The notes: generated from the sequence alone by a model not told the origin. DNA of 64,000 nucleotides from Patescibacteria group bacterium (GCA_041645165.1 JBAZQN010000007.1:8318-72317), one strand, 5' to 3'; positions 5,271 through 62,451 are shown, numbered from the stretch's first letter. Program-made: numbers and translations.

Positions 5271-5690
5271 TTACTCACTGCCTCGCTCTTCCCCCAGCCT
5301 TTTCGCGAGCATCCTCTGCTCTTCGAGCGTGTCAATAATGTCGCCTTCGAATCGCCAATGGGTGATCGAGTTTTTGCCGAAAGGGTTTGCATGGATATGC
5401 TCGGTCACCGCGGGGATATTGAGTTCCGCACCGCGCAGCAGCTCATGCACGACCGGCTCGCCATCGTTCCCAAACACGGTCACCATGGATTCCCCCTCGA
5501 TCTGCTTAAGCCGCTCCTCGACCGGGCGATGGTGCCTCTGCATTTCCTTTCCCGGCGGCAGTTCTAAATATCCCTCGCTCTTCGCATGGGTAGCGCTCGC
5601 GATATAGACGGTATAACCGCCGAGGTCTAACCGCTCGGCATCTTGCAATTGGGGAATGGGGGTGGACATAATATTTAAAATAATTTTCAA
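5271..5690 (-). CDS. cupin-domain protein
   Basis: PGKEMQRHHRPVEE ... VTVFGNDGEP matches the two-motif cupin signature. The start may be the internal MSTPIPQ. Confidence 0.4.
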   Translation of the reverse strand: MKIILNIMSTPIPQLQDAERLDLGGYTVYIASATHAKSEGYLELPPGKEMQRHHRPVEERLKQIEGESMVTVFGNDGEPVVHELLRGAELNIPAVTEHIHANPFGKNSITHWRFEGDIIDTLEEQRMLAKRLGEERGSE

Positions 5691-5826
5691 TTCTCAATTT
5701 TCAATTTCTCCCTCTTCGCGGGATCCCGCGTAGCGGGACAATCAATGTCGCAATGAATCAATTTTCAAACATTGCATCATTGATTCATTGAAAATTAATT
5801 GAAAATTGGTATTTGAAAATTGGAAA

Positions 5827-6783
5827 TTACTCACTGGGTTCTCCTACAATCTCCTTCCTCACCTCCTCCAAATACCCCACCACCATTTGTCGGCATAATT
5901 CCTGTTCCTCAACGCTTTCAATCGCCGCGCACTCCTCTACATTGCCCGTCACCAAGGCGCGGCAAAGCGCTTGCTGGCGTATGCTTTCAAATGCATTGCA
6001 TGACTCTGGCTGGCGCGCGTACGCGATGCAGAGGAATTTCAGCTGCGAGCTCTCAGGACTTACAGAATCACAAAAATCTGGGGGCAGCGTGTCACCCGCA
6101 CTCGCCGCGGCTATTGCCACTTGCGTAAAGCATGAATCGCGCTTGACCCCTTCTTCCTGCGTCTCGCAATAGGCAAGCGATTGGGTAAGCGCTGCGGAGA
6201 TATTCTCCTCCCCTCCCGCACCCGCAGGCGCGGACGAGTAAGTCACGTCAAGCGCCCCCCACGCCGCGATCCGCACGGCAACCAATACGCACACCGCAAC
6301 GATGAGCAATCTGCCGCTGCCTTTGTGAAAATCCTCATCTTCCTCTTGCGAAAAAAACCACTTGATTTGGAATAGCCCTATAAGCAGCACCACCAACGCC
6401 GTGATGCAGAGCAAAATGCCTGCGACAAACCCTGCGACCCACCACCTCCCCAGTTGTGAAGGCCATGAGGCCGCCGCAAAGCTCGTTCCCACTACGCTGG
6501 CCATCATGGCAACAACGACCTGCAGCACCATCAGCCCCCACCCCCACTTCTTGCGCTTCCACAGGCCCACTGCAGTAACAAGCACGAATACGCCTGCCAG
6601 AAATAATAACACCTTCAACTGCGGCGCAAGCGCCACGCTCGTGCGAACTCGCGCAAGGCTTATCACTGCCGCAGGCGCGAACGCAACCGCCAGCAGCGCT
6701 AATCCCGTCGCCGCGCGCTCGAGTGCCACTACCTTCACGCCCCATGCAATATTTAATTGTTTATGCATATCAGCGTAACACAT
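5827..6783 (-). CDS. polytopic membrane protein with a C-terminal 8-Cys domain, function unknown
   Basis: Several predicted TM helices followed by a Cys-rich tail (CETQ...CFTQ...CDSV...CIAY...CNAF...CRAL...CAAI...CRQM). The region is GC-rich, which produces long overlapping ORFs on both strands. Confidence 0.5.
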   Translation of the reverse strand: MCYADMHKQLNIAWGVKVVALERAATGLALLAVAFAPAAVISLARVRTSVALAPQLKVLLFLAGVFVLVTAVGLWKRKKWGWGLMVLQVVVAMMASVVGTSFAAASWPSQLGRWWVAGFVAGILLCITALVVLLIGLFQIKWFFSQEEDEDFHKGSGRLLIVAVCVLVAVRIAAWGALDVTYSSAPAGAGGEENISAALTQSLAYCETQEEGVKRDSCFTQVAIAAASAGDTLPPDFCDSVSPESSQLKFLCIAYARQPESCNAFESIRQQALCRALVTGNVEECAAIESVEEQELCRQMVVGYLEEVRKEIVGEPSE

Positions 6784-9925: not shown

Positions 9926-10110
9926 AATTATGACATGAAGATTCTAGATTATTACCAATCTGTCTTTGCTCTCCCCCTTAAGATAAGGGGGACTTAAAAG
10001 GGAGTTATGAAAACTTGCTAAAATTTCTATTACCTCTATCCTACCACATTCCCCGCCACTTAAGCAAAAACACCCTTTGAGGATTTTCGCGATCAATCAA
10101 CCGCATTGTC

Positions 10111-10130: not shown

Positions 10131-10290
10131 CCAGAAATCACCATACTCACGTAATCACTCAACCTACAAGCTTCCTCACCCTCACCTTTGTACTACCATC
10201 ACTAGGTCTCAAATCTTTCATCTACCTCTCTGTCCTATTCAAAATGACCAAATATCAATTATCAATAATAAAACTTATGCTGGATACAAG

Positions 10291-10324
10291 GACAATTAAT
10301 CTCACGATCGTGAAAATAATTGTT
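10291..10324. repeat. 34-bp palindrome family, copy A (GACAATTAATCTCACGATCGTGAAAATAATTGT)
   Basis: Perfect CACGATCGTG core flanked by inverted AT-rich arms. See copies at 13947, 14266, 14368, 14632 and 15342. Confidence 0.85.
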
Positions 10325-10770
10325 CTCTCTTCTCTAAAATAACTGCTTATTGAGTACTACTCTTGCGCAACCCTCTGCACTCAACTCCTTCAGTGAGGTT
10401 GCCTGCAAAAAAGTGTCTCGGAGGATTTGCGGGCACGGTCTCCGACCTCACGTCGGAGGAGCAAATCCGAGAGTCAAGTGGCCAACTCCTCGCAGGGGAA
10501 TTGGACCGCGTCTTTTTCTGCAGGCAATCCGAACGCTAGCCCCCATTGCTCCATTGCCAATTATGAATCGGGACGCACTCCAAAATCCTCCCCCTATGGC
10601 TTCGCCATATCTTGATGATAAAAAGAGGGAGGTTAGGTGAGGGTGTCTGTCGCAAATAAGTATATGCCACTTTTCCCATTGCCCACACCATAATTTTCTG
10701 TTAAGGTAACTTAATCCAAAAACTTAATAAACAGTGAACTTTTAAAATTTATCCAAAGAAAGGACGGTGT

Positions 10771-13836: not shown

Positions 13837-13946
13837 AAGCCCCCATTTCACCCTCTCCAATATCTTCTTTCTTCCCCTCTACCGCTTTCGTCCGCTTTCG
13901 TCCGTCTCAACCAGCACTAAAATCTAAACCAACACTAAAAACGAAA

Positions 13947-13980
13947 GACAATTAATCTCACGATCGTGAGGATAATGTCC
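13947..13980. repeat. 34-bp palindrome family, copy B
   Basis: gacaattaatctcacgatcgtgaggataatgtcc. Confidence 0.85.
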
Positions 13981-14045
13981 CTTCCTGTACATTACCTCTC
14001 TCGACAATATCACATTTCCATAAAATTTTCTGTCCATATTCATAT

Positions 14046-14215
14046 GAAGCTCCGCGGGCTTACACCCGCGGTGTCTTCCTCAACAGGAGATCCGGCGGAA
14101 TCCGCTTTAAGCTGCCTGCCGCCTTCGTCCCGACATGTTGGGACTTCGGCGGGTCCGCAATCCCGCATTCATCCGCGTATCTTACGCCCGCGGTTTTTTG
14201 CGGAGGCGGATAAAG
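14046..14215. repeat. ~170-nt hairpin-rich element, copy 1 of a two-copy family (candidate ncRNA or MITE)
   Basis: gaagctccgcgggcttacacccgcggtg ... cccgcattcatccgcgtatcttacgcccgcgg ttttttgcggaggcggataaa. It is homologous to 50570-50722, and the stems differ by paired, stem-preserving substitutions. Confidence 0.6.
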
Positions 14216-14265: not shown

Positions 14266-14304
14266 GACGACAATTAAAAATACGATCGTGACAATAATGT
14301 CCCC
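14266..14304. repeat. 34-bp palindrome family, copy C
   Basis: gacgacaattaaaaatacgatcgtgacaataatgtcccc. Confidence 0.8.
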
Positions 14305-14367: not shown

Positions 14368-14546
14368 GCAATTAATTCTACGATTCAGCCGACTGAAGCC
14401 ACAAGGCCACTATGGCGAAATTGGCTCACCCGCCTGCCAACGCCTGTCAGCAATGAACGGTGACATTCATCACGTTGTTATTATCCCTGACCAACATAAC
14501 GTTCCCCGGGAAAGGCAGATGGCGGGCAGGTGACAATAATGTCCCT
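14368..14546. repeat. 34-bp palindrome, copy D, split at its centre by two nested insertions
   Basis: Left half gcaattaattctacga and right half gtgacaataatgtccc are separated by a ~44-bp insert (ttcagccgac...ctatggcgaaattggctc, 14384-14427). A ~100-bp MITE-like element (cccgcctgcc...ggcgggcagg, 14429-14530) follows. Confidence 0.7.
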
Positions 14547-14631
14547 CCTATTTCCCCTTCATCGCCAGTTCTTTCCATTTCTCGTATCTCACCTCTTCCC
14601 TCCACGCCCAATATTCTATACTATAAAGAGC

Positions 14632-14666
14632 GCAATTATTTTCACGATCGTGAAAATAATGTCCCT
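14632..14666. repeat. 34-bp palindrome family, copy E
   Basis: gcaattattttcacgatcgtgaaaataatgtccc, immediately 3' of the PaaX-like gene. Confidence 0.85.
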
Positions 14667-15250: not shown

Positions 15251-15341
15251 AAAAGTTGTAAATAAGTTACATTTTCATTCCCTAAAAAGAAGCGGCAAGA
15301 ATAAGAGCGATATGGTAATATTACTACGATATTATTTAAAA

Positions 15342-15415
15342 GACAATTAATGTCACGAGCCAACTTCGCCATAGTAGCCGATGGCTACGTCGGCTGAATC
15401 GTGAAAATAATTGTC
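15342..15415. repeat. 34-bp palindrome, copy F, with a ~41-bp central insertion
   Basis: agacaattaatgtcacga | gccaacttcgccatagtagccgatggctacgtcggctgaat | cgtgaaaataattgtc. The insert is the reverse complement of the one in copy D (14384-14427). It lies in the divergent PaaX-like / ECF sigma promoter region. Confidence 0.75.
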
Positions 15416-15512
15416 TTCTTGCCAGTCTCTCTTTTATGGTATTTATGGTATAGTGAAATCCCAGATTGTAATGATTCTAGCCTTTTTTCGACTACTGATA
15501 ACGTAAAAAAAC

Positions 15513-16058
15513 ATGCCTCCCGAACCAATACCAACTCGCGACAAGGAACTTGAGGAGCGTTTTTTGGCTGCGTATGACGCCCAGGTGAAATCCATTTTCC
15601 GCTACATCTACTACCGCACTGGCCAGGAAAAAGAGGAAACGCAAGAGCTCACGCAGGAAGTATTCATGCGCACATGGGCGTACCTGCAAGAAAATAAGCG
15701 CCCCATCGACGACATCCGCGCTTTCCTCTTTCAAGTGGCCCGCCATGTCATCGCGGACCGGTGGCGCAAACACAAACCTGCGCTTTCCCTCGAAGAGTTA
15801 TCTCCTCAAGAAGAGCCTGCCACCCCGCCGCTCCCGCACGCATCCCTCGACCTTCTCATCCTTGAACAGCACCTTTTGAAGCTCCCCGTACGCCACAGGG
15901 AAATATTAACGCTGCGCTTTATCAGCGACCTCTCGACTGAAGAAACAGGGCGCGTTCTCGGCATTAGCGCGAATAATGTGGCAGTACTCACCAATAGGGC
16001 GATTAAAAAATTAAGAAAATTACTTCCCACTACCATGCATGATGTATTGGATGCATAA
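15513..16058 (+). CDS. RNA polymerase sigma-70 factor, ECF subfamily
   Basis: 181 aa. Region 2 (QELTQEVFMRTWAY) and a region-4 HTH (LTLRFISDLSTEETGRVLGISANNVAVLTNRAIKKLR). Confidence 0.8.
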   Translation: MPPEPIPTRDKELEERFLAAYDAQVKSIFRYIYYRTGQEKEETQELTQEVFMRTWAYLQENKRPIDDIRAFLFQVARHVIADRWRKHKPALSLEELSPQEEPATPPLPHASLDLLILEQHLLKLPVRHREILTLRFISDLSTEETGRVLGISANNVAVLTNRAIKKLRKLLPTTMHDVLDA

Positions 16059-16107
16059 TTTACCGCATTAAATTATAACAAATTTTCAATTTTCAAATAC
16101 CAATTTT

Positions 16108-16207
16108 CCCGCCTGCCAACGCCTGTCAAGGGGGACGGTAACATTCTTAAGGTAAAAATTCTCCCTCATATACGGCACGTTCCCGGGGGAAGGCTGTGGC
16201 GGGCAGG
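16108..16207. repeat. ~100-bp MITE-like element, copy 2 (cccgcctgccaacgcctgtca...ggc-gtggcgggcagg)
   Basis: It shares both ends and ~70% of its interior with 14429-14530. A truncated third copy is at 37928-37975. Confidence 0.65.
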
Positions 16208-16302
16208 CAATTAATTTTCAATATCACAATGTTTGAACATTAGGTCATTGGGATTTATTTGAAAATTGAGAATTGAAAATTGAGAATTGAAAATTACACA
16301 TT

Positions 16303-17451
16303 ATGGATCCTCTCGAACAACAACTTAAATCCCTGAATTCCTCGCCTGCGAGCGAGCCTGATCCGCAGTGGGTGGCGAGCGCGCGCACGAAACTTGCGTG
16401 GACGATGGAATATCCAGTACAAGGAGCGCTACCGCGCGCCACTCCCCTGCCGCGCCTGCGCTTCGGGCTGCGCAGAATATGGATGACGGTTTCAATATCG
16501 CTCCTCGTGGTGCTCCTCCTAGGGTCAGGCATCACGTACGCGGCGCAGGGCGTCATGCCGGATAACATCCTCTATCCGGTAAAAATTGCAAGCGAAGAAG
16601 TTCTCCTTGGCGTCACCAAAGATCCCGTACAACGCACCAACCTTGAACTGCGGCTTGCCAACCGCCGCGTTGACGAACTCCAAGCACTCTCGCAATCGGA
16701 AACATTAGACGCAGACATTGCAGCAGAACTGCACGCGCGTTACCAAAAGCATATCACTGAAGTCCTGCAGGCACTTCCCACCATACCCCAAGACAAAGTG
16801 CAAACGGTCACGGAAACGCTTTCCCAAGATACAGAAGAGCACGCGCGCATTACGCAAGAGCTGGATGTGCGCGCCTCATCCGAGATCAAAGGAGAAATCA
16901 AAGCATCGGTAAAGGCATCACTTGAGCAGATGCGGCAATTCACCGAAGAAACCTCGCGCGCCGCTCACTACTTGAAAGAAAAGAGCAACCGGCCTACGAA
17001 ATGGAAGGTGAAGGTTGAGACGAACACGACAGGCGAAGCCCATGTAAAAGTTGAGACCGAAATGGGGAATAATGAAAAAAAGGAAAAACGCGAAATAGAG
17101 TTTCGTGCCACGCCGGGAGTGCCGCTCACCGTGACCTCAACCTGGCCCATGATAAAGGAGCGGCGCGAGAAAAAAAATGACGAGGAAACTGAAGATCAAG
17201 AGCCCTCACGCGTGCGCGCCACCACAACGATAATATTTGACCTTGACCAAGCGACCACCACCGTGCCTTCAAACACCATTGAACAGCTTGAAAAGATGAA
17301 ACGTATCCTCAATAAAGGATCCTTCTTCCAGTTCCAGTCCGATATGAGCGCGGAGGGCGGCAGCGTCGAACAGCGCGTGGAAACCGATATTAAAGGACAA
17401 TCACACATCCGCGTTGATTCACAGGAGGATTCTCAAGAGGACGATGATTGA
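16303..17451 (+). CDS. putative anti-sigma factor (N-terminal anti-sigma region, single TM, periplasmic DUF5667-like domain)
   Basis: Immediately downstream of the ECF sigma gene. TM segment ISLLVVLLLGSGITYAA, then a coiled, charged periplasmic region with a pattern typical of DUF5667. Confidence 0.45.
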   Translation: MDPLEQQLKSLNSSPASEPDPQWVASARTKLAWTMEYPVQGALPRATPLPRLRFGLRRIWMTVSISLLVVLLLGSGITYAAQGVMPDNILYPVKIASEEVLLGVTKDPVQRTNLELRLANRRVDELQALSQSETLDADIAAELHARYQKHITEVLQALPTIPQDKVQTVTETLSQDTEEHARITQELDVRASSEIKGEIKASVKASLEQMRQFTEETSRAAHYLKEKSNRPTKWKVKVETNTTGEAHVKVETEMGNNEKKEKREIEFRATPGVPLTVTSTWPMIKERREKKNDEETEDQEPSRVRATTTIIFDLDQATTTVPSNTIEQLEKMKRILNKGSFFQFQSDMSAEGGSVEQRVETDIKGQSHIRVDSQEDSQEDDD

Positions 17452-18595: not shown

Positions 18596-20359
18596 ATGAA
18601 AAGAAAGGCTAAAATTATAACCACGATAATCATAATTGCGGCAGTCGGAAGCGCGGTAGGCATCTCTCTTGCAAGGCGCAAGAGCGCAGTCCCCTATCTC
18701 ACCGAAAAGGCATCAAGGGACAGCCTTGCGCAAACCGTATCCGCATCGGGAAAGGTGAAATCATCCACCGATGTGCTGCTTTCATTTTCGCAAAGCGGAC
18801 GCGTGGCGTCGATCAAAGTAAAAGAGGGAGACAGGGTGGAGGAAGGGCAGCTGCTCCTGGCCTTAGACCCTTCAGAGGCTGAAGCGCGGGTAGACGAGTC
18901 CTTAGCGTCAGTGGCCGCCGCACGCGCTGACTATGACAAATTAATGGCAGGCGCATCACTCACCGAACGGTACCTTGCATCTGTCGCCGAAAAAAACACG
19001 CGCAACAACCTCGCGCAGGCGCGCATCCGCACGGAGGCGGATATCGCAAAAGCGGCTCAAGCGCTTGAAGAGGCGCGTACTGCCGTGAGCGCGTCAGAGA
19101 CAAACCTTCAGGAAGACCTTGCGGCGAAACTCACCGATGCGAAAACCGCGGCCGATACTGCGGAAAAAAAGACGCAGGGAGCCATGAACACCCTCGAGGA
19201 AATATATGACTCCGGAAATGATTTTAATTCTTACTTCACCATAAATAATACGGAAGCAAAAGAGAACGCGAAAAGCGCGAAAAGCGCTGCAGACAGCGCA
19301 TGGAGCCGATTCTCCTCTTCCCTTTCTTTGTTCCGCAACGCGCCCACGGAAGTGGCGGTCCACCAGTGGTTCCCCCGCTTAATTGAAGACCTCTCAATAA
19401 TGCGGATCTCCGTCTCCAAAACAAGTCTGGCGCTCAACGACGCCACGGTGAGCTCAAGCGCGCCAAAAACACTCACCACCTACCGCGCGGATATTGCGAG
19501 CGCCTGGACTGACCTCAACGCCTCCATCGCGGACCTCAATGACGCGGACATCGACCTTACCACCGCGCGCTTGAACGGCGAAGCTGCTTTAAAACTCAAA
19601 AAAGCGGCAGCCTCCACCGCGGAAGAAACACTTCAAGTGACCAAGGCGCAGGCGCAAACCACCCTTACCCAGGCAGAGGGAGATTTAAGAACTGCGGAAG
19701 CACAAAACCAGAAAACCATTGCGCCGCCCACCAAAGAGGAATCTGCGCTCTTAATCGCGCGGCTCGGGGAAGCGCAAGCATCCCTTGCCACGACGCAGGA
19801 TGCCCTTGAAAAAACGACAATGAAGAGCCCCCTAAAAGGCATTATTACCAATGTGGAAGTAAAAGTAGGCGAAACCGTATCGCCCGCCGTGACGGTCATC
19901 CGCCTCCTCACGGAAAACGCCCTTGAAATTTCCGTACAAACGCCGGAGTCGGACATCCCAAAATTGCAGATGAATGATAAGGCCGATATCACCCTTGACG
20001 CGTTTGGCAGCGCTACTGTCTTCGCGGGAAAAATCCGCTTTATCAATCCGGCAGAAACCATCATCGAAGGCGTGGTGTACTATGAAGTAACCGTCGCGTT
20101 TGATAACGCTGTTCCTGAAATCAAGCCGGGCATGAGCGCAGATGTTATCATGCATACTGATGAACGCAATAATGTCCTCACGGTTCCCTTGCGCGCCGTG
20201 AAGGAAAAAGACGGCATAAACTTCGTGGAAATACTCAATGGCGCATCCCTCGAGCAGAGAGAGGTTTCACTCGGCTTGCGCGGCGACGGCGGAAGGGTCG
20301 AGATCGCCAGCGGCCTCAAGGAAGGAGAGCTCGTGATCATTGGAACCAAAAAGAAATAA
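18596..20359 (+). CDS. HlyD/MacA-type periplasmic adaptor (membrane fusion protein) with an extended coiled-coil
   Basis: N-terminal TM anchor (MKRKAKIITTIIIIAAV), a biotinyl-lipoyl-like segment (GKVKSSTDVLLSFSQSGRVASIKVKEGDRVEEGQLLLALD), a very long Ala/Glu-rich coiled-coil, and a C-terminal beta-barrel. The ORF could instead start at 18551. Confidence 0.7.
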   Translation: MKRKAKIITTIIIIAAVGSAVGISLARRKSAVPYLTEKASRDSLAQTVSASGKVKSSTDVLLSFSQSGRVASIKVKEGDRVEEGQLLLALDPSEAEARVDESLASVAAARADYDKLMAGASLTERYLASVAEKNTRNNLAQARIRTEADIAKAAQALEEARTAVSASETNLQEDLAAKLTDAKTAADTAEKKTQGAMNTLEEIYDSGNDFNSYFTINNTEAKENAKSAKSAADSAWSRFSSSLSLFRNAPTEVAVHQWFPRLIEDLSIMRISVSKTSLALNDATVSSSAPKTLTTYRADIASAWTDLNASIADLNDADIDLTTARLNGEAALKLKKAAASTAEETLQVTKAQAQTTLTQAEGDLRTAEAQNQKTIAPPTKEESALLIARLGEAQASLATTQDALEKTTMKSPLKGIITNVEVKVGETVSPAVTVIRLLTENALEISVQTPESDIPKLQMNDKADITLDAFGSATVFAGKIRFINPAETIIEGVVYYEVTVAFDNAVPEIKPGMSADVIMHTDERNNVLTVPLRAVKEKDGINFVEILNGASLEQREVSLGLRGDGGRVEIASGLKEGELVIIGTKKK

Positions 20360-20488
20360 CCAAGTGCATAAATCCCAAATCCCAATTTCCAATGACCAAT
20401 AAAATCCCAATGTTTCAATGATCAAGTTTGGACATTTGGATTTTGAGCTTTATTGGGAATTGGGATTTGGACATTGGGATTTTCTCTT

Positions 20489-21196: not shown

Positions 21197-21334
21197 GAAA
21201 TCCCAAACCCCAATGTCCAATTCCCAATAAAATCCCAACTCCAAAAATCCCAATTTGGCATTTGTCATTTAATCATTATTGGTCATTGGTCATTCATTTG
21301 ACATTGGGATTTTGACATTTGGATTTCTATTTCT

Positions 21335-22564
21335 ATGTTTTTCTCCCCCATTAAATCCTCTATTAAAATCCTCCGAAAGAGCCGCAACCGGACTTTTTTA
21401 TCCATACTCGGGATTGTCATCGGCATTGCCGCCGTCATTATTATCATGTCCGTGGGCGCGGGCGCGCAAAGCCTCATCTTCAACCAAATCACGTCCGTCG
21501 GATCCAATCTCATCGGGGTGCTGCCCGGCTACAGCGACGAAGAAGGGCCGCCCGCGTCAATCATGGGCATCGCGGTGACCACCCTCAAACATGAGGACGC
21601 ACTGGCGCTAAAAAAAATTACGGGAGTGGAGGCGGTGACGAGCTACGTGCGCGGCATTGAGAGCATCCAGTGGCAGAACCAAACAACGGACGCCACCTAC
21701 ATCGGCACTACTGCCGAATACCCGCAGGTGGAATCGGCTGATATGGAGATAGGCGATTTCTTTGACGCATCAAGCGAAACCGGCATCGCGCGCGTCGCAG
21801 TCCTCGGCTGGCAAGTCTGGCAGGAACTCTTCGGCGACCAAAGCCCCGTAGGAGAAACCATACGGATAAAAAGCGAACAGTTTCGCGTCATCGGCGTGAT
21901 AGAGAAAAAAGGGGTGCAGGGATTTGAAAACAAAGATATGCAAGTGTTTATTCCCCTCGAGACTGCGCAAAAACTCATGCTGGGGATCCGCCATGTCAAT
22001 ATGATTCGCATCAAGGTGGTGAGCGATGAAATGGTGTCCACCGCACTCGACCAGACCAAAGCAATCCTAAGAGAGCGCCACCGCCTCACCGGCACGATGC
22101 CTGACGACTTCACGGCGCGCGCGGCAACCCAAGCGCTTGATTCGCTCGGCCAGATCACCAATGCGTTGAAATTTTTCCTGGCGGGGATCGCCGCCATCTC
22201 CCTTTTGGTGGGCGGCGTAGGCATAATGAATATCATGCTGATTGCCGTCAATGAGCGGATGAGGGAAATCGGACTTCGCAAAGCAGTAGGCGCCACCAAT
22301 AGCAACATCCAGACACAATTTTTATCGGAAGCCTTGGTGCTCACGGTAGTGGGTGGTGTCATTGGCATTATCGTGGGCGCCGCGGTGTCCGCGCTCGTGG
22401 CGCTCGTGGCAAATTACCTTGGCTACCAATGGCAATATGTGGTCACCCTCTCATCGATTGTGCTTGGTGTTGGCTTTTCCGGCATGGTGGGCATCGTGTT
22501 CGGCTGGTATCCTGCCCGACGGGCATCAAAACTCGAACCCGTGGAAGCGCTGAGATATGAATAA
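21335..22564 (+). CDS. ABC transporter permease, FtsX/MacB family
   Basis: N-terminal TM, a large periplasmic domain, and a C-terminal FtsX 4-TM domain (GIRKAVGATNSNI...). Confidence 0.8.
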   Translation: MFFSPIKSSIKILRKSRNRTFLSILGIVIGIAAVIIIMSVGAGAQSLIFNQITSVGSNLIGVLPGYSDEEGPPASIMGIAVTTLKHEDALALKKITGVEAVTSYVRGIESIQWQNQTTDATYIGTTAEYPQVESADMEIGDFFDASSETGIARVAVLGWQVWQELFGDQSPVGETIRIKSEQFRVIGVIEKKGVQGFENKDMQVFIPLETAQKLMLGIRHVNMIRIKVVSDEMVSTALDQTKAILRERHRLTGTMPDDFTARAATQALDSLGQITNALKFFLAGIAAISLLVGGVGIMNIMLIAVNERMREIGLRKAVGATNSNIQTQFLSEALVLTVVGGVIGIIVGAAVSALVALVANYLGYQWQYVVTLSSIVLGVGFSGMVGIVFGWYPARRASKLEPVEALRYE

Positions 22565-22796
22565 TTCAAATCCATAATTTTCAAGGTTCAATTTTGCAAT
22601 TTTTCCCCCGACTTGTCGGGGGATCCCGCTGCGGCGGGACAATCAATGTTACAATGATCCAATTTTCCAATGTTTGAAAATTGTCGCATTGAAAATTATT
22701 TGAAAATTGAGCACTGGGAATTGAAAATTATCAAGGTTGGGATTTATTTGGACACTGGACATTGGAATTTGGAAATTGAAATACACTCATTACTTT

Positions 22797-24107: not shown

Positions 24108-24202
24108 CTATTCACCTATTTCCGCCATAGGCGGACAAGCGCGCCTGCCCCGCTCGCCACGTTGCATAACTGTGGCCGCATGGCTGGGGCGAATTAGAGA
24201 AG
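24108..24202. repeat. ~95-bp direct repeat, copy 1 (ctattcacctatttccgccataggcggac...ggctggggcgaattagagaag)
   Basis: About 95% identical to 26699-26792. It contains the hairpins ccgccataggcgg and gcccc..gccac..gtggc..ggggc. Confidence 0.85.
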
Positions 24203-26688: not shown

Positions 26689-26698
26689 ACTATTCCCC

Positions 26699-26792
26699 TA
26701 TTCCCCTATTTCCGCCATAGGCGGACATGCGCGCTCGCCCCGCTCGCCACGTTGCATAACTGTGGCCGAATGGCTGGGGCGAATTAGAGAAG
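26699..26792. repeat. ~95-bp direct repeat, copy 2
   Basis: ctattcccctatttccgccataggcggacatgcgcgctcgccccgctcgccacgttgcataactgtggccgaatggctggggcgaattagagaag. Confidence 0.85.
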
Positions 26793-37927: not shown

Positions 37928-37975
37928 CCCGCCTGCCAACCCGCCCACAGATACGCAGTTGCTGGCGGGGGCAGG
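37928..37975. repeat. truncated third copy of the MITE-like element (cccgcctgccaacccgcccacag...gctggcgggggcagg)
   Basis: It shares both terminal motifs with 14429-14530 and 16108-16207 but has a much shorter interior. Confidence 0.5.
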
Positions 37976-57279: not shown

Positions 57280-58085
57280 TTATTCACTACTCTGGGTCTT
57301 TTCTAATCCAACCGCCAAGAAAACCGAATCCTGTCTTAAGAACTGACCAATATTCTGCTTGTAGTACCTGGCGTTCGCATACGTCAAACTGGTGTCCCTG
57401 TCATACATGTGCCCTGTAAACTTCCTCTGTTCGTCGAAGGAGCCTGATTTCCAGTCAATCCTCATTGATCCGTAGGGGTAGTAGTCCAATAATTGTACCA
57501 TGCCTCCGGTGCTATTCGTAGCGACGTTAGAACCCGTCAGATGATCCGTGTGGATGTATTGGAGGGTTGAGCCTTCCACTGTGGCAACCAGCTGGCTTCC
57601 TGCGTAGATATGCTTACTATTCTTCGTCCCATCGCTATTATACAGCTTATTCGCATACCGCGTCGTCACGCTTCCTGAAACCAGTTTCGTCCTCTGGCCT
57701 GTATGGTCGTACTGATAGGTGACGGTGGAACCTGTTTTCTGGGATTGGGTCAGCTGGTTGGCGTAGTTCCATGAGTGAGTCCAGGTGGAATCAGAGGTCA
57801 GGTTGCCGTTGTTATCATACGCGTAGGTCACGCCGTTGACCGACGTTGCCGCATGGGGGTTCGCGTAATTGGTGCCTTGGTAGAGGTAAGCCCCGACATC
57901 TGACTTGTTAGAGATGTTGCCGATGGCGTCGTAGGAATACGTTTGCGTGAAGTTTCCTGGACTGGTGGATGTGGCGTTGGTGGCGATAGCGGAGGTAAGG
58001 CGATGCAGATCATCATAGGCATGGGTGATGGTATCCGCGTCTGGCTCTGCATTTGGCGCGATTGCGGGGGCTATTTCGTCGAATA
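57280..58085 (-). pseudogene. RHS/YD-repeat C-terminal fragment, truncated and frameshifted remnant
   Basis: 57280-57831 encodes YDHTGQRTK...YANARYYKQNIGQFLRQD but stops right after the RHS core. 57828-58052 continues in another frame. The DNA is near-identical to 59200-59640 and 61590-62040. Confidence 0.55.
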
Positions 58086-58129
58086 AATCTTATTAAGGTA
58101 TTTGCCCCCTTATCTATACTCAACTTCAC

Positions 58130-58417
58130 TCAATCAATCATAATGCCTATATTATGCAATTGTTTCTTTGGGTCCCAATTTTCTGGTTCATTGTCTATCT
58201 TATCTCTCCATGGCATTCCCTCCTCTATCCACTTTTTACGCAATTCCAAATGCCGTTTCTCGCGCTCTTGCGCAGTCTTACCGAAATCATGATATCCATA
58301 TTGTATATGACAACATGGGCAAATATTATCGGACTGACTGTCTCCCTTCCATGCAGGCTCATGATAAACCGAATATATATCGTACCCGCATACCGGGCAA
58401 TAAGAATCGTTAGTCAT
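58130..58417 (-). CDS. small Cys-rich (zinc-ribbon-like) protein, candidate immunity protein
   Basis: CPVCG...CPCC. Its start is 3 nt after the stop of the upstream RHS-CT cassette. Confidence 0.4.
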   Translation of the reverse strand: MTNDSYCPVCGYDIYSVYHEPAWKGDSQSDNICPCCHIQYGYHDFGKTAQEREKRHLELRKKWIEEGMPWRDKIDNEPENWDPKKQLHNIGIMID

Positions 58418-58420
58418 ATC

Positions 58421-59656
58421 TCATTCCTTAATAACGTTATCAACTTTATTCCAATCAACCAACTCGCCTTGTTGGTTATTCCAATAATCCAGATTTGTTC
58501 CTTGTCCATGAACGGCAGGGTCTGGTTTGAAGAACGTCCTGATAGTGCCGTCCGGATTGTAGGAACCGAGCGTGTTCGCTGCTTCGTCATAGACTCTGAC
58601 AATGCCATCTTTATCAATCTTAGTCGGCAACTTATCGCTCTGTGCTCTCTGAAGAAAGTCGCGAGCCAAATCTGTATATTCGTCAGCGCTCCGAGCGCCG
58701 AATTCGCTAGCATGGTCCAAGTAATGTTCTTTATATTTTGTAGGGCTGGCCCACGCCTTAGCTCCTTTCAACCCTTTCGACGCATCCGCCACATTATCGA
58801 AGTGGCCCGCAACGAGTCTCGCTGCCTTACCGTATCCGCCTCCAACGGATAGAAGCCCAATGCCTACGCCTGCAAGAGTAATACTCTTCTGAATTTTGGT
58901 CGAGTTTGGATTAAGCCAAGTCTTTACGAGATCATAGACGTCCCAGACCGTAAAACCCGCTTCAACTGCAAGGTACATTAATCCTGCGATACTGAATGTA
59001 ACCGGTTCAGTGCCGAACGGGTCAATATATTTCATCGGATTATTATTCGCGTATGCATAGCTGTTCAATCCTTGTGGATTGCTCAACAGTGCTGCCGACT
59101 GCGCTCCATCTCGAACACCAATAGTAAGATACACGGGATCCTGTGATAAGAACCGTCCAATCCCCTGCTTGTAATACCTCGCATTGGCATACGTTAAACT
59201 GGTATCCCTATCAAACTCATGCCCCGTGAACTTCCTCTGTTCGTCGAAGGAGCCTGACTTCCAGTCAATCCTCATTGATCCGTAGGGATAGTAGTCCAAT
59301 AATTGTACCATGCCTCCACTACTGTTCGTAGCGGCGTTCGAGCCGGTGAGGTGGTCGGTATGGAGGTATTGAAGTGTCGTACCCTCGACTGTTCCTATGA
59401 GCTGGCTTCCTGCGTAGATATGCTTGGTTGCCGTGGTTTGCTTGATATTGTAGAGCTTGTTGGGATAGTGGCGGGCATAGCCGCTCACGCCGTCATAGTA
59501 CTTGGTCCTTTGCCCTGTGTGGTCGTATTGGTAGGTGACGGTGGAGCCTGTTTTCTGGGACTGGGTAAGCTGGTTAGCGTAGTTCCAAGTGTGAGTCCAC
59601 GTCGAATCTGACGTGAGATTGCCGTTGTTGTCATACGCGTAGGTCACGCCACCCAC
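58421..59656 (-). CDS. orphan RHS C-terminal cassette: RHS core plus a distinct C-terminal toxin domain of unknown type
   Basis: YDHTGQRTKYYDG...DRDTSLTYANARYYKQGIGRFLSQDPV (RHS repeat-associated core), then a ~230-aa unrelated C-terminal domain ending HGQGTNLDYWNNQ. Confidence 0.6.
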   Translation of the reverse strand: MGGVTYAYDNNGNLTSDSTWTHTWNYANQLTQSQKTGSTVTYQYDHTGQRTKYYDGVSGYARHYPNKLYNIKQTTATKHIYAGSQLIGTVEGTTLQYLHTDHLTGSNAATNSSGGMVQLLDYYPYGSMRIDWKSGSFDEQRKFTGHEFDRDTSLTYANARYYKQGIGRFLSQDPVYLTIGVRDGAQSAALLSNPQGLNSYAYANNNPMKYIDPFGTEPVTFSIAGLMYLAVEAGFTVWDVYDLVKTWLNPNSTKIQKSITLAGVGIGLLSVGGGYGKAARLVAGHFDNVADASKGLKGAKAWASPTKYKEHYLDHASEFGARSADEYTDLARDFLQRAQSDKLPTKIDKDGIVRVYDEAANTLGSYNPDGTIRTFFKPDPAVHGQGTNLDYWNNQQGELVDWNKVDNVIKE

Positions 59657-59696
59657 TGACGTTGCCGCGTGGGGATTGGCGGTTTCAGTGTCGGAA

Positions 59697-60233
59697 TCAA
59701 TTTTCGGTGCTTGTTATTGTATTATTCGGATTAAAGTATTTTTTATTCTTAAACAGTCCTATTAATAACACAATAAAGACTAAGAAATAAATGCCAAAAT
59801 TTACCGCCATGCCCACCGGAGAAAAAGTAAAATCAAGCGCTTCCTGACGTACCGCAAGTCCACGCGCCTCACGACTTATAATATATGCGTCCTTTGCCAA
59901 ATCGACATGAGTGAATGAAATGACAAACATGACTACCGTAAAGAATAAATAAAGAACAATACCCGCCACAGCTATTGGGAAGGCTCGTGGATATTGTTTA
60001 AATACAAAGACCGCTGCACTACCCGTAACAATCAATACCGCGAGAGCAAAGACTATATACAATACACCGAATCCAAAATTATTTAGTATATTGTAGTCGG
60101 ATACCGTTTGATAGCGGAGAAGATCGAAAAGTGTGCGTACGAACAACCAAACTAATACGATTATAAGAATCGTGATAATTTTGGGCCGTTTTGACTGCGT
60201 ACTGACCTGTGAATTTGTGACCGTTTGTTCCAT
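59697..60233 (-). CDS. four-TM membrane protein, function unknown
   Basis: Hydrophobic segments only. Confidence 0.4.
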   Translation of the reverse strand: MEQTVTNSQVSTQSKRPKIITILIIVLVWLFVRTLFDLLRYQTVSDYNILNNFGFGVLYIVFALAVLIVTGSAAVFVFKQYPRAFPIAVAGIVLYLFFTVVMFVISFTHVDLAKDAYIISREARGLAVRQEALDFTFSPVGMAVNFGIYFLVFIVLLIGLFKNKKYFNPNNTITSTEN

Positions 60234-60248
60234 ATGATTTTTTGTAGA

Positions 60249-60842
60249 TTACCACATCCGTTCGAATTCGGTGGATTTTATCAATTCTAAATTGGTGAGC
60301 TTAGCGCTTTCGAGCGCCTCTGCAACACGTTCTGTGACGAATCTTACACCTGTACCTTCCGCAAGGAAAATATCGCTTCCGTCCCACATTTTGAGATCGA
60401 AGTAATATCCATATCGTGCACGATATGATCCGTACTTCTCACTTGCAGGTACCTGCACCCACTCACTTTTACTATCATCAATGGGTCCACACTTACCCGT
60501 CACTACAAGCCCGCTATATCCTGACACTTCCTCTCTTTTTTTATTAAAAACTCTTGCCGGGAAAGTTGACCAGCCGGTGAACCTTCCCTTCTTCAACACT
60601 TCGACTACTCTATCGCTGATTAGGAGAATGGGAGGGTTTGCCGACATGAAGTCCTTTGGCCGTGTGCCGCCATTATGACCGAAGATCACGGGCTTTGCTG
60701 AACCTTCCTTTCCAGCAAGCAAGTCGAAGTCGTATTGTACCTTATCTTTGACTCTTTCAGGATACTCCTTAACATATTGGCTCATCGCGCCATATTCTAT
60801 CCCCGCTCCTAGAAGGTAAAATTGGTCTGGAGTGTATGCCAT
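60249..60842 (-). CDS. candidate immunity protein for the AHH toxin
   Basis: Its start codon is 1 nt after the toxin stop. The longer annotated ORF (to 61133) would overlap the toxin by 290 nt, so the internal MAYTPDQF start is preferred. Confidence 0.45.
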   Translation of the reverse strand: MAYTPDQFYLLGAGIEYGAMSQYVKEYPERVKDKVQYDFDLLAGKEGSAKPVIFGHNGGTRPKDFMSANPPILLISDRVVEVLKKGRFTGWSTFPARVFNKKREEVSGYSGLVVTGKCGPIDDSKSEWVQVPASEKYGSYRARYGYYFDLKMWDGSDIFLAEGTGVRFVTERVAEALESAKLTNLELIKSTEFERMW

Positions 60843-60843
60843 A

Positions 60844-62451
60844 TTATTCAATCTTAAAATCAATCCTATACTTCTCGGCTGTTTCATTCGCAAAATTATG
60901 TATCTGCTCTTGCGAAGCGTTTGGATTTTTACTGATAAACTTCTCCCACCTTGCATTATACTCGTTTGATAACTTCTGATGTGTCCCATCCGGTCCCTTC
61001 TGCCACCATGAACCGTACTTGGGATCATGGACATTAATACCGGCTCGCTCAAAGAATCCTCTAAAATTTTCCGTTTGCGGCAACATATGGTGCGCGTCGA
61101 ACCCGCTCCCCGGATTCTTTCCAGTGAGTTCAATTAAGTTACCCCTGAAATGCCCTGAGGTAAAACTCTTAAAGTTCATCGCTCTGTCGACCGCTTTTGC
61201 TGCGTCACTCGCCTTATCCGCAACCCTCGTCACCCGTGCCGCTGCTCCCAACCCGGTCGCGAAAGGAATAGCGGCGCCGCCAATATCAAGCCCCAGGCTC
61301 AACATTTCTCCCTTCACGTCTCCTCCATGAGCAATCGCACCACCTAATTTGTAAAGATCGTACGCGATGAAGCCGATATCAATAAAGGTATCAAGAAACT
61401 CACCTCCCTTGTCAACATACTTGAGAGGATTGTTGGTGACGTAAGAGTAAGAATTGAGGTATTGAGGATTGGAGAGATACTCTCGCATCCTCATGTTCGT
61501 TCCTTGTTGGATTGCCTGCTCGTCCCCGATAGAGAGGAATACGGGATCCTGCGACAGGAAACGCCCTATGTTCTGCTTATAATACCTCGCATTGGCGTAG
61601 GTAAGACTGGTGTCTCTATCGAACTCATGCCCCGTGAACTTCCTCTGCTCGTCGAAAGAGCCTGATTTCCAGTCTATCCTCATGCTGCCATACGGGTAGT
61701 AGTCCAATAATTGTACCATGCCTCCACTGCTGTTCGTAGCGACGTTCGAGCCAGTGAGGTGGTCGGTATGGAGGTATTGGAGGGTTGAGCCTTCCACGGT
61801 GGCAATCAGTTGACTTCCGGCGTAGATGTGCTTGGTTGCCGTGGTTTGCTTGATATTGTAGAGCTTGTTGGGATAGTGGCGGGCATAGCCGCTCACGCCG
61901 TCATAGTACTTGGTCCTTTGCCCTGTGTGGTCGTATTGGTAGGTCACGGTGGAGCCGCCTGTGGATTGGGTAAGCTGGTTAGCGTAGTTCCAAGTGTGAG
62001 TCCACGTCGAATCTGACGTGAGATTGCCGTTGTTGTCATACGCATACACGGCAGAGCCGACTTTTGTCACTGCATGAGGGTTGGCGTAATTGGTGCCTTC
62101 ATAGAGATACGTGCCTTGGTCAGATGCCGTGAGAATATTCCCAATCGCGCTGTAGGTGTACGTTCTTCCGGTGTTATCGCCATTCGCCGCGCCGGTAATT
62201 GAAGAGGTCAAAAGCCTATGCAAATCGTCGTAGGTATAGGTGATGGTCTTGCCTGCGTTGGTGCTGGACGCTTCTACGATCTGAGTGATATTCCCCACCT
62301 GGTCGTATGACCATTCTTGAGGTATCACATTTTTACGATCGTTAGCTTTTGATACCTCTGCATCATCACTTGCAATCCACCCCCTATCAATAACGATCGC
62401 TATATATTGGAAGTGGATATGAACGAGTATTGAACGCCATAATGCTCTCAC
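60844..62451 (-). CDS. RHS/YD-repeat protein (C-terminal portion) with an AHH-family HNH-like nuclease toxin domain
   Basis: YD repeats (TYTYDDLHRL, YAYDNNGNLT, YQYDHTGQRT), the RHS core (DRDTSLTYANARYYKQNIGRFLSQDPV) and C-terminal GSGFDAHHMLPQ (the AHH motif). Confidence 0.6.
   Translation of the reverse strand: MRALWRSILVHIHFQYIAIVIDRGWIASDDAEVSKANDRKNVIPQEWSYDQVGNITQIVEASSTNAGKTITYTYDDLHRLLTSSITGAANGDNTGRTYTYSAIGNILTASDQGTYLYEGTNYANPHAVTKVGSAVYAYDNNGNLTSDSTWTHTWNYANQLTQSTGGSTVTYQYDHTGQRTKYYDGVSGYARHYPNKLYNIKQTTATKHIYAGSQLIATVEGSTLQYLHTDHLTGSNVATNSSGGMVQLLDYYPYGSMRIDWKSGSFDEQRKFTGHEFDRDTSLTYANARYYKQNIGRFLSQDPVFLSIGDEQAIQQGTNMRMREYLSNPQYLNSYSYVTNNPLKYVDKGGEFLDTFIDIGFIAYDLYKLGGAIAHGGDVKGEMLSLGLDIGGAAIPFATGLGAAARVTRVADKASDAAKAVDRAMNFKSFTSGHFRGNLIELTGKNPGSGFDAHHMLPQTENFRGFFERAGINVHDPKYGSWWQKGPDGTHQKLSNEYNARWEKFISKNPNASQEQIHNFANETAEKYRIDFKIE

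Follow-up and report, generated by a model that had tools for sequence, protein, structure and literature searches.

Short GC-rich hairpin elements with common asymmetric ends in a Patescibacteria contig and in distant bacteria: probable non-autonomous mobile DNA, in some cases carrying tRNA genes

Results

Three copies of a short element in intergenic spacers

The sequence analyzed here is a 64,000-nt stretch of a Patescibacteria (CPR) metagenome contig, referred to below as the window. It contains three copies of a short element (c1, c2 and c3), all on the plus strand and all in intergenic spacers (Table 1). The neighbours of c1 are a fused purC/E gene and a PaaX-like regulator gene, c2 separates a sigma from an anti-sigma gene, and c3 follows hisIE and faces a P-type ATPase gene. 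Only short mechanical ORFs (52–94 aa) overlap c1. All copies start with CCCGCCTGCCAAC; c1 and c2 end with GGCGGGCAGG and c3 with GGCGGGGGCAGG, its 3' terminus having two extra G. This confirms the three locations and both termini as described in the initial annotation. The first 21 nt (CCCGCCTGCCAACGCCTGTCA) and the 3' end (...AAGGC(A/T)G(A)TGGCGGGCAGG) are common to c1 and c2, which are 75% identical overall and 68% in the interior, in line with the earlier estimate of about 70% and with the shared blocks named there. The full-length copies c1 and c2 have a G+C content of 56–59% in flanks of about 40%. The interior of c3 is short and unrelated. This copy had been called truncated, but it has both termini, and comparable short forms of 39–42 nt with both termini occur in other genomes (L021, L058).

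An exact match to the 13-mer CCCGCCTGCCAAC is present at three places in the window, on the plus strand only, where chance would give about 0.002 occurrences in 128 kb of two-strand sequence according to our own calculation (the shuffles used only matches with up to two mismatches). No fourth copy was detected in the window when up to four mismatches per 16-nt arm were allowed.

Table 1 Features of the window and tRNA-borne copies in selected loci
Feature	Sequence	Position	Strand	Description
Palindrome, left half	window	14369-14384		half of a split 30-bp palindrome, CAATTAATTCTACGAT
Hairpin H, copy 1	window	14385-14428	-	44 nt, separate insert between left palindrome half and c1; homologous to 15359-15398
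c1	window	14429-14530	+	full-length, 102 nt, CCCGCCTGCCAAC...GGCGGGCAGG
Palindrome, right half	window	14531-14546 (start about 14531)		TGACAATAATGTCCC
Hairpin H, copy 2	window	15359-15398	+	at the exact centre (ACGA|TCGT) of another palindrome copy, 15340-15417
AT-rich heptamer array left of c2	window	16079-16107		AATTTTC-type, one arm of inverted module
c2	window	16108-16207	+	full-length, 100 nt; ECF sigma gene (15513-16058) on one side, DUF5667 anti-sigma gene (16303-17451) on the other
AT-rich heptamer array right of c2	window	16248-16300		GAAAATT-type, other arm of module
Empty site	window	20380-20400, junction 20389|20390		..CCCAATTTC|CAATGACCAAT, orthologous to filled L249 9940-10039
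c3	window	37928-37975	+	short form, 48 nt, both termini, downstream of hisIE
tRNA-borne copy	L096	3235-3344		Val(CAC), insertion at position 37/38
tRNA-borne copy	L043	6902-7012		Arg(CCT), D-loop insertion
tRNA-borne copy	L056	3450-3559		D-stem insertion
tRNA-borne copy	L072	3767-3876		D-stem insertion
tRNA-borne copy	L077	7683-7793		D-stem insertion

The window holds several further repeats. A TrmB-like regulator gene and a B12-binding radical-SAM gene are enclosed by a 95-nt direct repeat (24108-24202 and 26698-26792, 95% identical), in which there are a mini-hairpin and a CGCCTGCCCCGCTCGCC stretch resembling the 5' end of the element. Three tandem paralogous genes at 57308-62086 have blocks of 300 nt and 180 nt in common at 60–85% identity (repeat families D1 and D2). 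Two GC-rich, strongly self-complementary islands in AT-rich spacers (10360-10540 and 14040-14210) have no Rfam match and are missing from the purC-paaX spacer of relatives.

A palindrome split by two different inserts

According to the initial annotation, c1 is nested inside a split palindrome. The split is real: the joined flanks read TCATGACAAT, the intact palindrome TCGTGACAAT. The insert, however, measures about 146 nt and is composed of two different inserts, the 44-nt hairpin H and the 102-nt c1. Hairpin H (40–44 nt, GCCAAYTTCGCCATAGTRGCC...GTCGGCTGAA) lies at the exact centre of two palindrome copies and is a second small insert family unrelated to the element.

The 30-bp palindrome CAATTAnnnTCACGATCGTGAnnATAATTG itself is present in intact copies at 10289-10326 (start 10288 or 10289), 13944-13976, 14266-14298 and 14628-14660, and in two split copies, one at 15340-15417 and the other around c1 (14369-14384 and 14531-14546). 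Its copies cluster round the PaaX-like regulator gene and keep the same places in two relatives (L243, L247), and it is probably the operator of this regulator.

Empty sites and exact boundaries

Relatives with 59–79% identical anti-sigma proteins keep the gene order and have no copy at the positions of c1 or c2. The first copy sits in a lineage-specific expansion of about 630 nt of the purC/E-paaX spacer, and this expansion is missing in L243 and L247. Similarly, c2 is missing from the orthologous spacer in L243, L245, L247 and L249: the sigma/anti-sigma spacer consists of a bare 122-nt AT-rich module in L243 and L245, contains a different insert in L247, and is absent in L249. Synteny with the relatives breaks after hisIE, upstream of c3. 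The reverse situation is found in the HlyD/ABC spacer, where L249 carries a 100-nt copy (9940-10039) that begins with CCCACCTGCC and has an interior recognizably related to that of c2. This copy lies exactly between ..CCCAAACC and CAATGACCAAT, and at the orthologous window position nothing is inserted and nothing is duplicated. Presence/absence polymorphism among syntenic relatives therefore runs in both directions, and the earlier statement that the element is or was mobile is borne out by these missing copies, by the pair of filled and empty sites, and by the occurrence of the same ends at 240 or more loci described below.

Insertion is exact and leaves no duplication. In interrupted tRNA genes, removal of CCCGCC...GGCAGG restores a complete cloverleaf with no base gained or lost, and among 128 distinct insertions there was no flanking direct-repeat signal, save where the target is itself a tandem repeat. 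The target-site duplications that the initial annotation proposed to look for are thus absent at the copies, in the interrupted tRNA genes and at the L249/window site pair. Among 113 non-redundant insertions, the flanking base is A at position -1 in 52% and T at +1 in 59%, and an A|T junction is found in 35% against about 6% expected; |TCG, |TCT and |TA recur, and left flanks have no conservation apart from the A at -1. A general test of whether hairpin loops are targeted gave no significant result, the joined flanks folding no better than random positions, and this speaks against the mobile-element reading. Nonetheless, there are striking individual cases, namely c1, L001, L086, the tRNA loops and nested copies. 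For example, c1 lies within about 3 nt of hairpin H at the centre of the 30-bp palindrome, and in Desulfobacterales copies are found inside the loops of other copies. The copies in L001 and L249 as well as c2 occupy the centre of inverted AT-rich heptamer arrays, and in the paralogous window modules at 5660-5850 and 22555-22760 other small GC hairpins are found at the same spot as c2. The orientation of the cargo relative to the ends can be either.

Intergenic modules of inverted AT-rich heptamer arrays (GAAAATT, GGGATTT and CGGATTT types) are located in the window at 5660-5850, 16060-16310, 20355-20483, 21226-21331 and 22555-22760. Similar ones are present in the flanks of L001 and in L198, L213, L242, L175 and L150, so that the style is common to the window, other CPR and other phyla, and they are the usual landing place of GC hairpins. 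A 31-nt hairpin, ACGCYAGAKGCGGATCMGCCTTYGGCKG, is found in L249 (10051-10081) and in L247 (HlyD/ABC and sigma/anti-sigma spacers), and its site is empty in the window at 20400|20401; related sequences flank tRNA-borne elements in L125, L176 and L193.

Distribution across bacterial phyla

A scan of one genome per species with the pattern CCCGCCTGCCAAC-N60-90-GGCGGGCAGG, for which we calculate about 0.5 chance matches, was complemented by a metagenome scan anchored on the reverse-strand end. Together, the two scans place the same termini at no fewer than 240 public loci, with at least 120 stretches each from genomes and from metagenomes, although both forced exact termini, so that copy numbers and end conservation are partly ascertainment-biased. 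The initial annotation, which had asked whether the termini occur beyond the window, would have abandoned mobility if only three copies existed and no empty sites were found; both are contradicted here. Among the matches listed, the hosts include many CPR lineages, Desulfobacterales, Salegentibacter (on a 418-kb contig), Bacteroidaceae, Ignavibacteria, Methylomirabilis, Syntrophaceae, Planctomycetota, Kiritimatiellae and Gammaproteobacteria, with Bacteroidota thus represented. A few matches in high-GC coding DNA look like chance. The interiors, 20–90 nt long, are unrelated between lineages while the ends are identical. The copies c1, c2, L001 (Uhrbacteria) and that of L249 form one subfamily, in which a c2-like interior is found at different loci. 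In Desulfobacterales, single MAGs contain dozens of near-identical copies, many of which lie at contig ends, with copies also nested inside others. A scan of viral contigs for the full pattern gave no match, which we count against the reading as a mobile element.

A sequencing adaptor or assembly artefact was rejected as an explanation, since identical structures come from independent projects and assemblers, and the motif is not known to resemble common sequencing adaptors. In the deltaproteobacterial MAG AUK324 (L008, L016, L033, L039-L042, L050, L053, L091, L106), a 103-nt element lies inside a composite repeat of about 350 nt, the ~60-nt sub-blocks of which are also found alone.

Conserved imperfect pairing of the ends

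All three window copies fold as hairpins closed by their termini, with c1 and c2 forming long imperfect hairpins. The ends pair over ten positions (CC-C-GCCUGCC with GGCGGGC-A-GG) including one C.A mismatch and one G.U wobble; further inward there is a small internal loop, in which AAC faces AAU or UAU, and then GCC(U) pairs with (A)GGC. Compared as inverted repeats, the ends agree in 12 of 16 positions; the other four, all mismatches, are conserved too. The arms are not self-complementary, and each pairs only with the other. A mismatch-tolerant rescan of the collected loci, which did not force the termini, returned 454 arm pairs with the canonical imperfect 10-mer pair and four to eight of each perfectly complementary variant, and variation of the ends was mostly confined to the internal loop. 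Since the canonical imperfect pair far outnumbers the perfect-stem variants, the ends are conserved as sequences, beyond the mere maintenance of a helix. These near-invariant terminal 10-mers with their mismatches, together with the rarity of perfect stems, point to sequence-specific recognition. The conserved non-Watson–Crick positions and the internal loop would also fit an RNA or protein–RNA recognition motif.

tRNA genes inside tRNA genes

At about 70 loci among the matches listed, the interior of the element is a complete tRNA gene and the element itself lies in the D-arm of a resident tRNA gene, usually with the same anticodon. Five loci with a tRNA gene inside another of the same anticodon were among the matches listed from the genome scan (Table 1). 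The metagenome scan, anchored on ..AGA|CCTGCCCGCC, yielded at least 121 copies, and an inner tRNA is present in 63 of the 121 listed (loci L123-L242). Thr (three anticodons) and Arg (four anticodons) dominate these 63 inner tRNAs, and Val, Pro and Ala are also present; a Glu case with the inner tRNA on the opposite strand (L164) stands outside this count, and Lys comes from L072 of the genome scan. Joining the flanks gives an intact outer tRNA spanning the junction in 27 of the 63 cases, with the same anticodon as the inner tRNA in 19 of the 27. In most of the 27, the junction follows outer nucleotide 22–24, mostly at D-stem position 23|24. In more than half of the cases the outer gene is truncated, or its anticodon or T loop is replaced by further mini-hairpins.

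Inner and outer genes are 58–87% identical and have compensatory differences in their stems, which indicates that the inner copy is not a fresh local duplicate. A few pairs have identical anticodon arms, which suggests gene conversion. We also considered a separate clade of element-borne tRNAs and dismissed it on mean identity, as inner–inner, outer–outer and inner–outer comparisons all give about 0.73–0.75 for Thr(CGT). Only the acceptor stem GCCCATG/CGTGGGC, common to many Thr cargoes across three anticodons, hints at an element-borne tRNA lineage. The orientation of the element relative to the tRNA varies between cases, which argues for a strand-symmetric process at the DNA level. From these sequence patterns, we read the insertion as one that probably kills the resident tRNA gene and persists only if the same tRNA is provided by the cargo, and we regard splicing of the outer tRNA as less likely.

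Two mini-hairpins, ATCCCGC-N3/4-GCGGGAC and TTTCCGCC-AWA-GGCGGA, occur in window spacers at 5723-5739, 22623-22640, 24119-24136 and 26709-26726. The same motifs replace the anticodon loop (L126, L181, L056, L148, L223) or the T-arm loop (L238, L152) of disrupted CPR tRNA genes.

Search for a mobilising enzyme, a partner gene and a known RNA family

The autonomous partner with the same ends that had been envisaged in the initial annotation was not found in 253 sequences covering about 1.6 Mb of loci, nor was any longer element with these ends; there was no pair of ends (A...B) more than 300 nt apart. The same ~1.6 Mb contained no transposase-like ORF bracketed by the arms, and no recombinase or transposase was detected among 30 window ORFs scanned against Pfam. 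Clustering of the neighbouring ORFs revealed no recurrent neighbour protein and gave housekeeping families only (histidine kinases, sigma-54 activators, Obg, PilM). We count these negative results, too, against the reading as a mobile element.

At six loci (L138, L141, L158, L212, L232, L240), a copy of the element ends 10 nt before the start codon of a gene for a 23S rRNA-intervening-sequence protein (PF05635, E-value 9e-19). In this group of loci, the element and the PF05635 gene (in L240, 2017-2119 and 2129-2608) lie together within an AT-rich inverted module. This gene was rejected as a general partner, as it adjoins the element in one orthologous locus group only.

At the RNA level, the whole window had no match in Rfam 15 at the gathering score, and a permissive search of c1 and c2 (E-values up to 10) gave chance-level matches only, with E-values of 1–9. 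The copies were not flagged in a simple terminator scan. In ribozymes it is the core that is conserved; the element, judged by eye, has conserved termini and a variable interior, the reverse of this arrangement, and twister and other small ribozymes were dismissed on this ground. Likewise, attC, Xer/dif, BHB-intron and cyanobacterial HIP1 contexts were dismissed on sequence. No description of the element was found in the full-text literature, terminal sequences included; this coverage is incomplete, and an earlier description is possible.

Discussion

Proposed nature of the element

We consider it probable that c1, c2 and c3 are copies of a non-autonomous mobile DNA element of the foldback type, the ends of which would be recognized in trans by a putative enzyme. 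In this model the functional parts would be the two ends, 5' CCCGCCTGCC-AAC-GCC and 3' GGC-WWU-GGCGGGCAGG, pairing into a stem of about 16 bp that always has one C.A mismatch, one G.U wobble and a small internal loop. The interior between them would be free to vary, being a lineage-specific hairpin in the window and a whole tRNA gene elsewhere. Recognition of the paired or synapsed ends, by both sequence and shape, might fall to an enzyme encoded elsewhere, which would cut precisely at the stem base and integrate the element at a new site. Joining without staggered cuts would leave no duplication. Insertion would preferentially occur between A and T, and often in AT-rich repeat modules, palindromes, other copies and the D-arm of tRNA genes. 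We also infer, besides the trans-acting enzyme, that the intermediate is single-stranded or a hairpin and that the element has no host function. By analogy, the closest mechanistic likeness may be the single-strand 'peel-and-paste' or hairpin-recognizing recombination of IS200/IS605, REP-RAYT and integron attC sites.

The copies in the window are most likely passive passengers in intergenic spacers. The second copy would place a strong hairpin in the transcript of the sigma and anti-sigma genes. For individual copies such as c2, a processing or stabilizing role at the RNA level is possible, but such a role does not account for the polymorphism, the bursts of copies and the decaying tRNA hosts.

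On a broader view, the copies would be members of a cross-phylum family, so far undescribed, of hairpin elements of about 100 bp that encode no protein and whose ends are recognized by a putative hairpin- or single-strand-specific enzyme. Members carrying a tRNA gene would insert at D-arm position 23|24 of a resident tRNA gene with the same anticodon, destroy it and substitute their own copy, acting as a minimal 'addictive' gene-replacement element; or, if the outer tRNAs are spliced, they would represent bacterial tRNA introns of a new class, themselves containing a tRNA. We put this wider proposal forward tentatively, at slightly less than even chances.

Alternative explanations

Two of the alternatives place the function of the element in RNA. 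It might be a hairpin comparable to an intervening sequence or a processing site (for RNase III or another nuclease), a transcript stabilizer or an insulator, acting in transcribed spacers and stable-RNA genes, with its genomic spread being secondary. The geometry of the C.A and G.U pairs and the internal loop indeed gives an equivalent stem in either orientation, and c2 lies within a co-oriented sigma/anti-sigma gene pair, where the other GC hairpins at the same position of paralogous spacers suggest that some hairpin is wanted. The arms of tRNA-carrying copies form a leader–trailer stem round the inner tRNA, and at six loci a copy lies 10 nt upstream of the gene for the 23S rRNA intervening-sequence protein. 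We nevertheless regard this as unlikely: there is neither an Rfam match nor a terminator call, the interiors are unconstrained, the mismatches are conserved rather than compensated, and relatives manage without the element at the same sites. Moreover, the outer tRNAs are often truncated or further disrupted, so that the element is evidently not removed to yield a working tRNA, and the recent copy bursts in Desulfobacterales, with their near-identical members, look like the work of a selfish element. Far less plausible still is a new bacterial intron of tRNAs or other stable RNAs that is spliced out and of which intergenic copies such as c1–c3 are strays. It would explain why 27 of 63 outer tRNAs fold as intact cloverleaves after removal of the element in silico, 19 of the 27 with the anticodon of the inner tRNA, and why the insertion in L096 is at the canonical intron position 37/38. 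By inspection, however, no bulge-helix-bulge is possible at the D-stem 23|24 junction, the element is found in either orientation, most copies lie outside RNA genes, and the majority of outer tRNAs are truncated or have further hairpin inserts in the anticodon and T loops.

The remaining alternatives also assume mobile DNA, moved in a different way. In a cassette system, the ends would be recombination sites of the integron attC or Xer-type dif kind, and the interior, including tRNA genes, a cassette moved by a site-specific recombinase of the host. Variable interiors between invariant imperfect inverted ends, cargo in either orientation, the lack of duplication and a folded hairpin with unpaired bases resembling attC all suit this idea, which we still judge improbable, because the attC core sites are unmatched (AAC, facing AAU or UAU, is unpaired, and the 3' end lacks GTTRRRY), the 28-bp Xer site does not fit, copies are scattered singly rather than in arrays beside an integrase, and no core is common to ends and targets. 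An ordinary MITE derived from an insertion sequence with a DDE transposase, whose old copies have lost their target duplications, would agree with the prokaryotic MITE description in size, inverted ends (12/16), AT-rich intergenic preference and multi-copy state (PMC10969869). We give it hardly any credence, as it is largely refuted by the youngest copies, which also lack duplications (near-identical Desulfobacterales copies, insertions in intact tRNAs and the L249/window pair); furthermore, no parent insertion sequence was found, and the asymmetry between left and right end is invariant across phyla.

Implications

If the elements are indeed foldback-type DNA mobilized in trans, about 30 conserved nucleotides in two ends would suffice to mobilize arbitrary cargo across very distant bacteria, including the small-genome CPR lineages, in which few mobile elements are known. 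This would imply an unrecognized and probably widespread enzyme activity on GC-rich DNA hairpins, with possible use as a tool. The tRNA-in-tRNA arrangement would be a concrete and testable case of horizontal tRNA gene replacement, one that tRNA annotation pipelines would mis-call as nested or split genes or as false pseudogenes. For the window, it would mean that three GC-rich islands in AT-rich spacers are insertions rather than regulatory RNAs, and CPR intergenic spacers would be mosaics of several small hairpin elements. The invariant asymmetric ends across phyla, the lack of duplication and the proposed tRNA-in-tRNA replacement go beyond what the window had suggested at first sight.

Comparison with known systems

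The standard architecture of prokaryotic MITEs consists of terminal inverted repeats and flanking direct repeats, and tRNA is not mentioned in a review of 2024 (PMC10969869). Like MITEs such as Correia/NEMIS, RUP, ERIC and Chunjie (PMC10969869), the element is short, non-coding, non-autonomous and multi-copy, has inverted ends and hairpin transcripts, and lies at AT-rich intergenic sites. Its copies of 48–102 nt are well within the MITE size (<500 bp, non-coding), carry terminal inverted repeats (12/16) and are dispersed with presence/absence polymorphism. To this extent the earlier label 'MITE-like' is apt, the element being short, non-coding and multi-copy and having termini that are conserved imperfect inverted repeats; the label does not extend to the missing target-site duplication, to the absence of an autonomous partner or parent insertion sequence from ~1.6 Mb of loci, or to a GC-rich instead of AT-rich composition. 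Further differences from MITEs are the asymmetric end pair, invariant across phyla, the unrelated interiors and the tRNA gene in some copies.

REP/REPIN sequences are GC-rich extragenic hairpins of about 100 nt, non-autonomous and without duplication, which are presumed to be moved by a single-copy domesticated RAYT (Y1 HUH). The element resembles them as a non-autonomous GC-rich hairpin of about 100 nt that makes no duplication. REP units are imperfect palindromes with a 5' tetranucleotide, arranged as inverted doublets, whereas the arms of the element are not palindromes and have no GTAG-type tetranucleotide. In the collected loci, no RAYT gene is flanked by the element and no arm-bracketed gene is transposase-like, and REP families are species-specific, while the ends of the element are the same from CPR to Bacteroidota. 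IS200/IS605 elements insert exactly and without duplication, dependent on folded ends, which fits a single-strand mechanism. The lack of target duplication is common to both, but in IS200/IS605 each end has its own subterminal hairpin and a fixed 4–5-nt target lies 5' of the left end, whereas the ends of the element pair with one another and show only the A|T bias. Integron attC sites likewise have imperfect inverted ends, a folded hairpin with unpaired bases and a variable centre of 20–100 nt. Their core sites (R'' RYYYAAC, R' GTTRRRY) differ from the element, in which TGCCAAC faces GGCAAU or GGCUAU with AAC unpaired and no GTT; also, neither cassette arrays nor an intI gene was seen.

Intervening sequences of 23S rRNA and Rickettsia palindromic elements are sporadic stem-forming inserts of about 100 nt in loops of stable-RNA or other genes. 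The tRNA-borne copies share the structural half of this description, a long stem inserted in a stable-RNA gene; however, intervening sequences occur only in rRNA helices, from which RNase III excises them, whereas the element is mostly intergenic and interrupted tRNA genes decay. Archaeal-type tRNA introns with a bulge-helix-bulge differ as well, since by inspection of L056, L072, L077, L043 and L096 the D-stem is split in its 3' strand (23|24) and no exon helix encloses the insertion. Finally, temperate phages with tRNA-dependent lysogeny, which reportedly disrupt a resident tRNA gene, offer a parallel for the tRNA-carrying members. The logic is the same, with an element that comes with a tRNA gene of its own (PMC10865867). 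In the phage case a whole prophage with an integrase is involved, whereas the tRNA-carrying element measures about 110 bp in all and encodes no protein.
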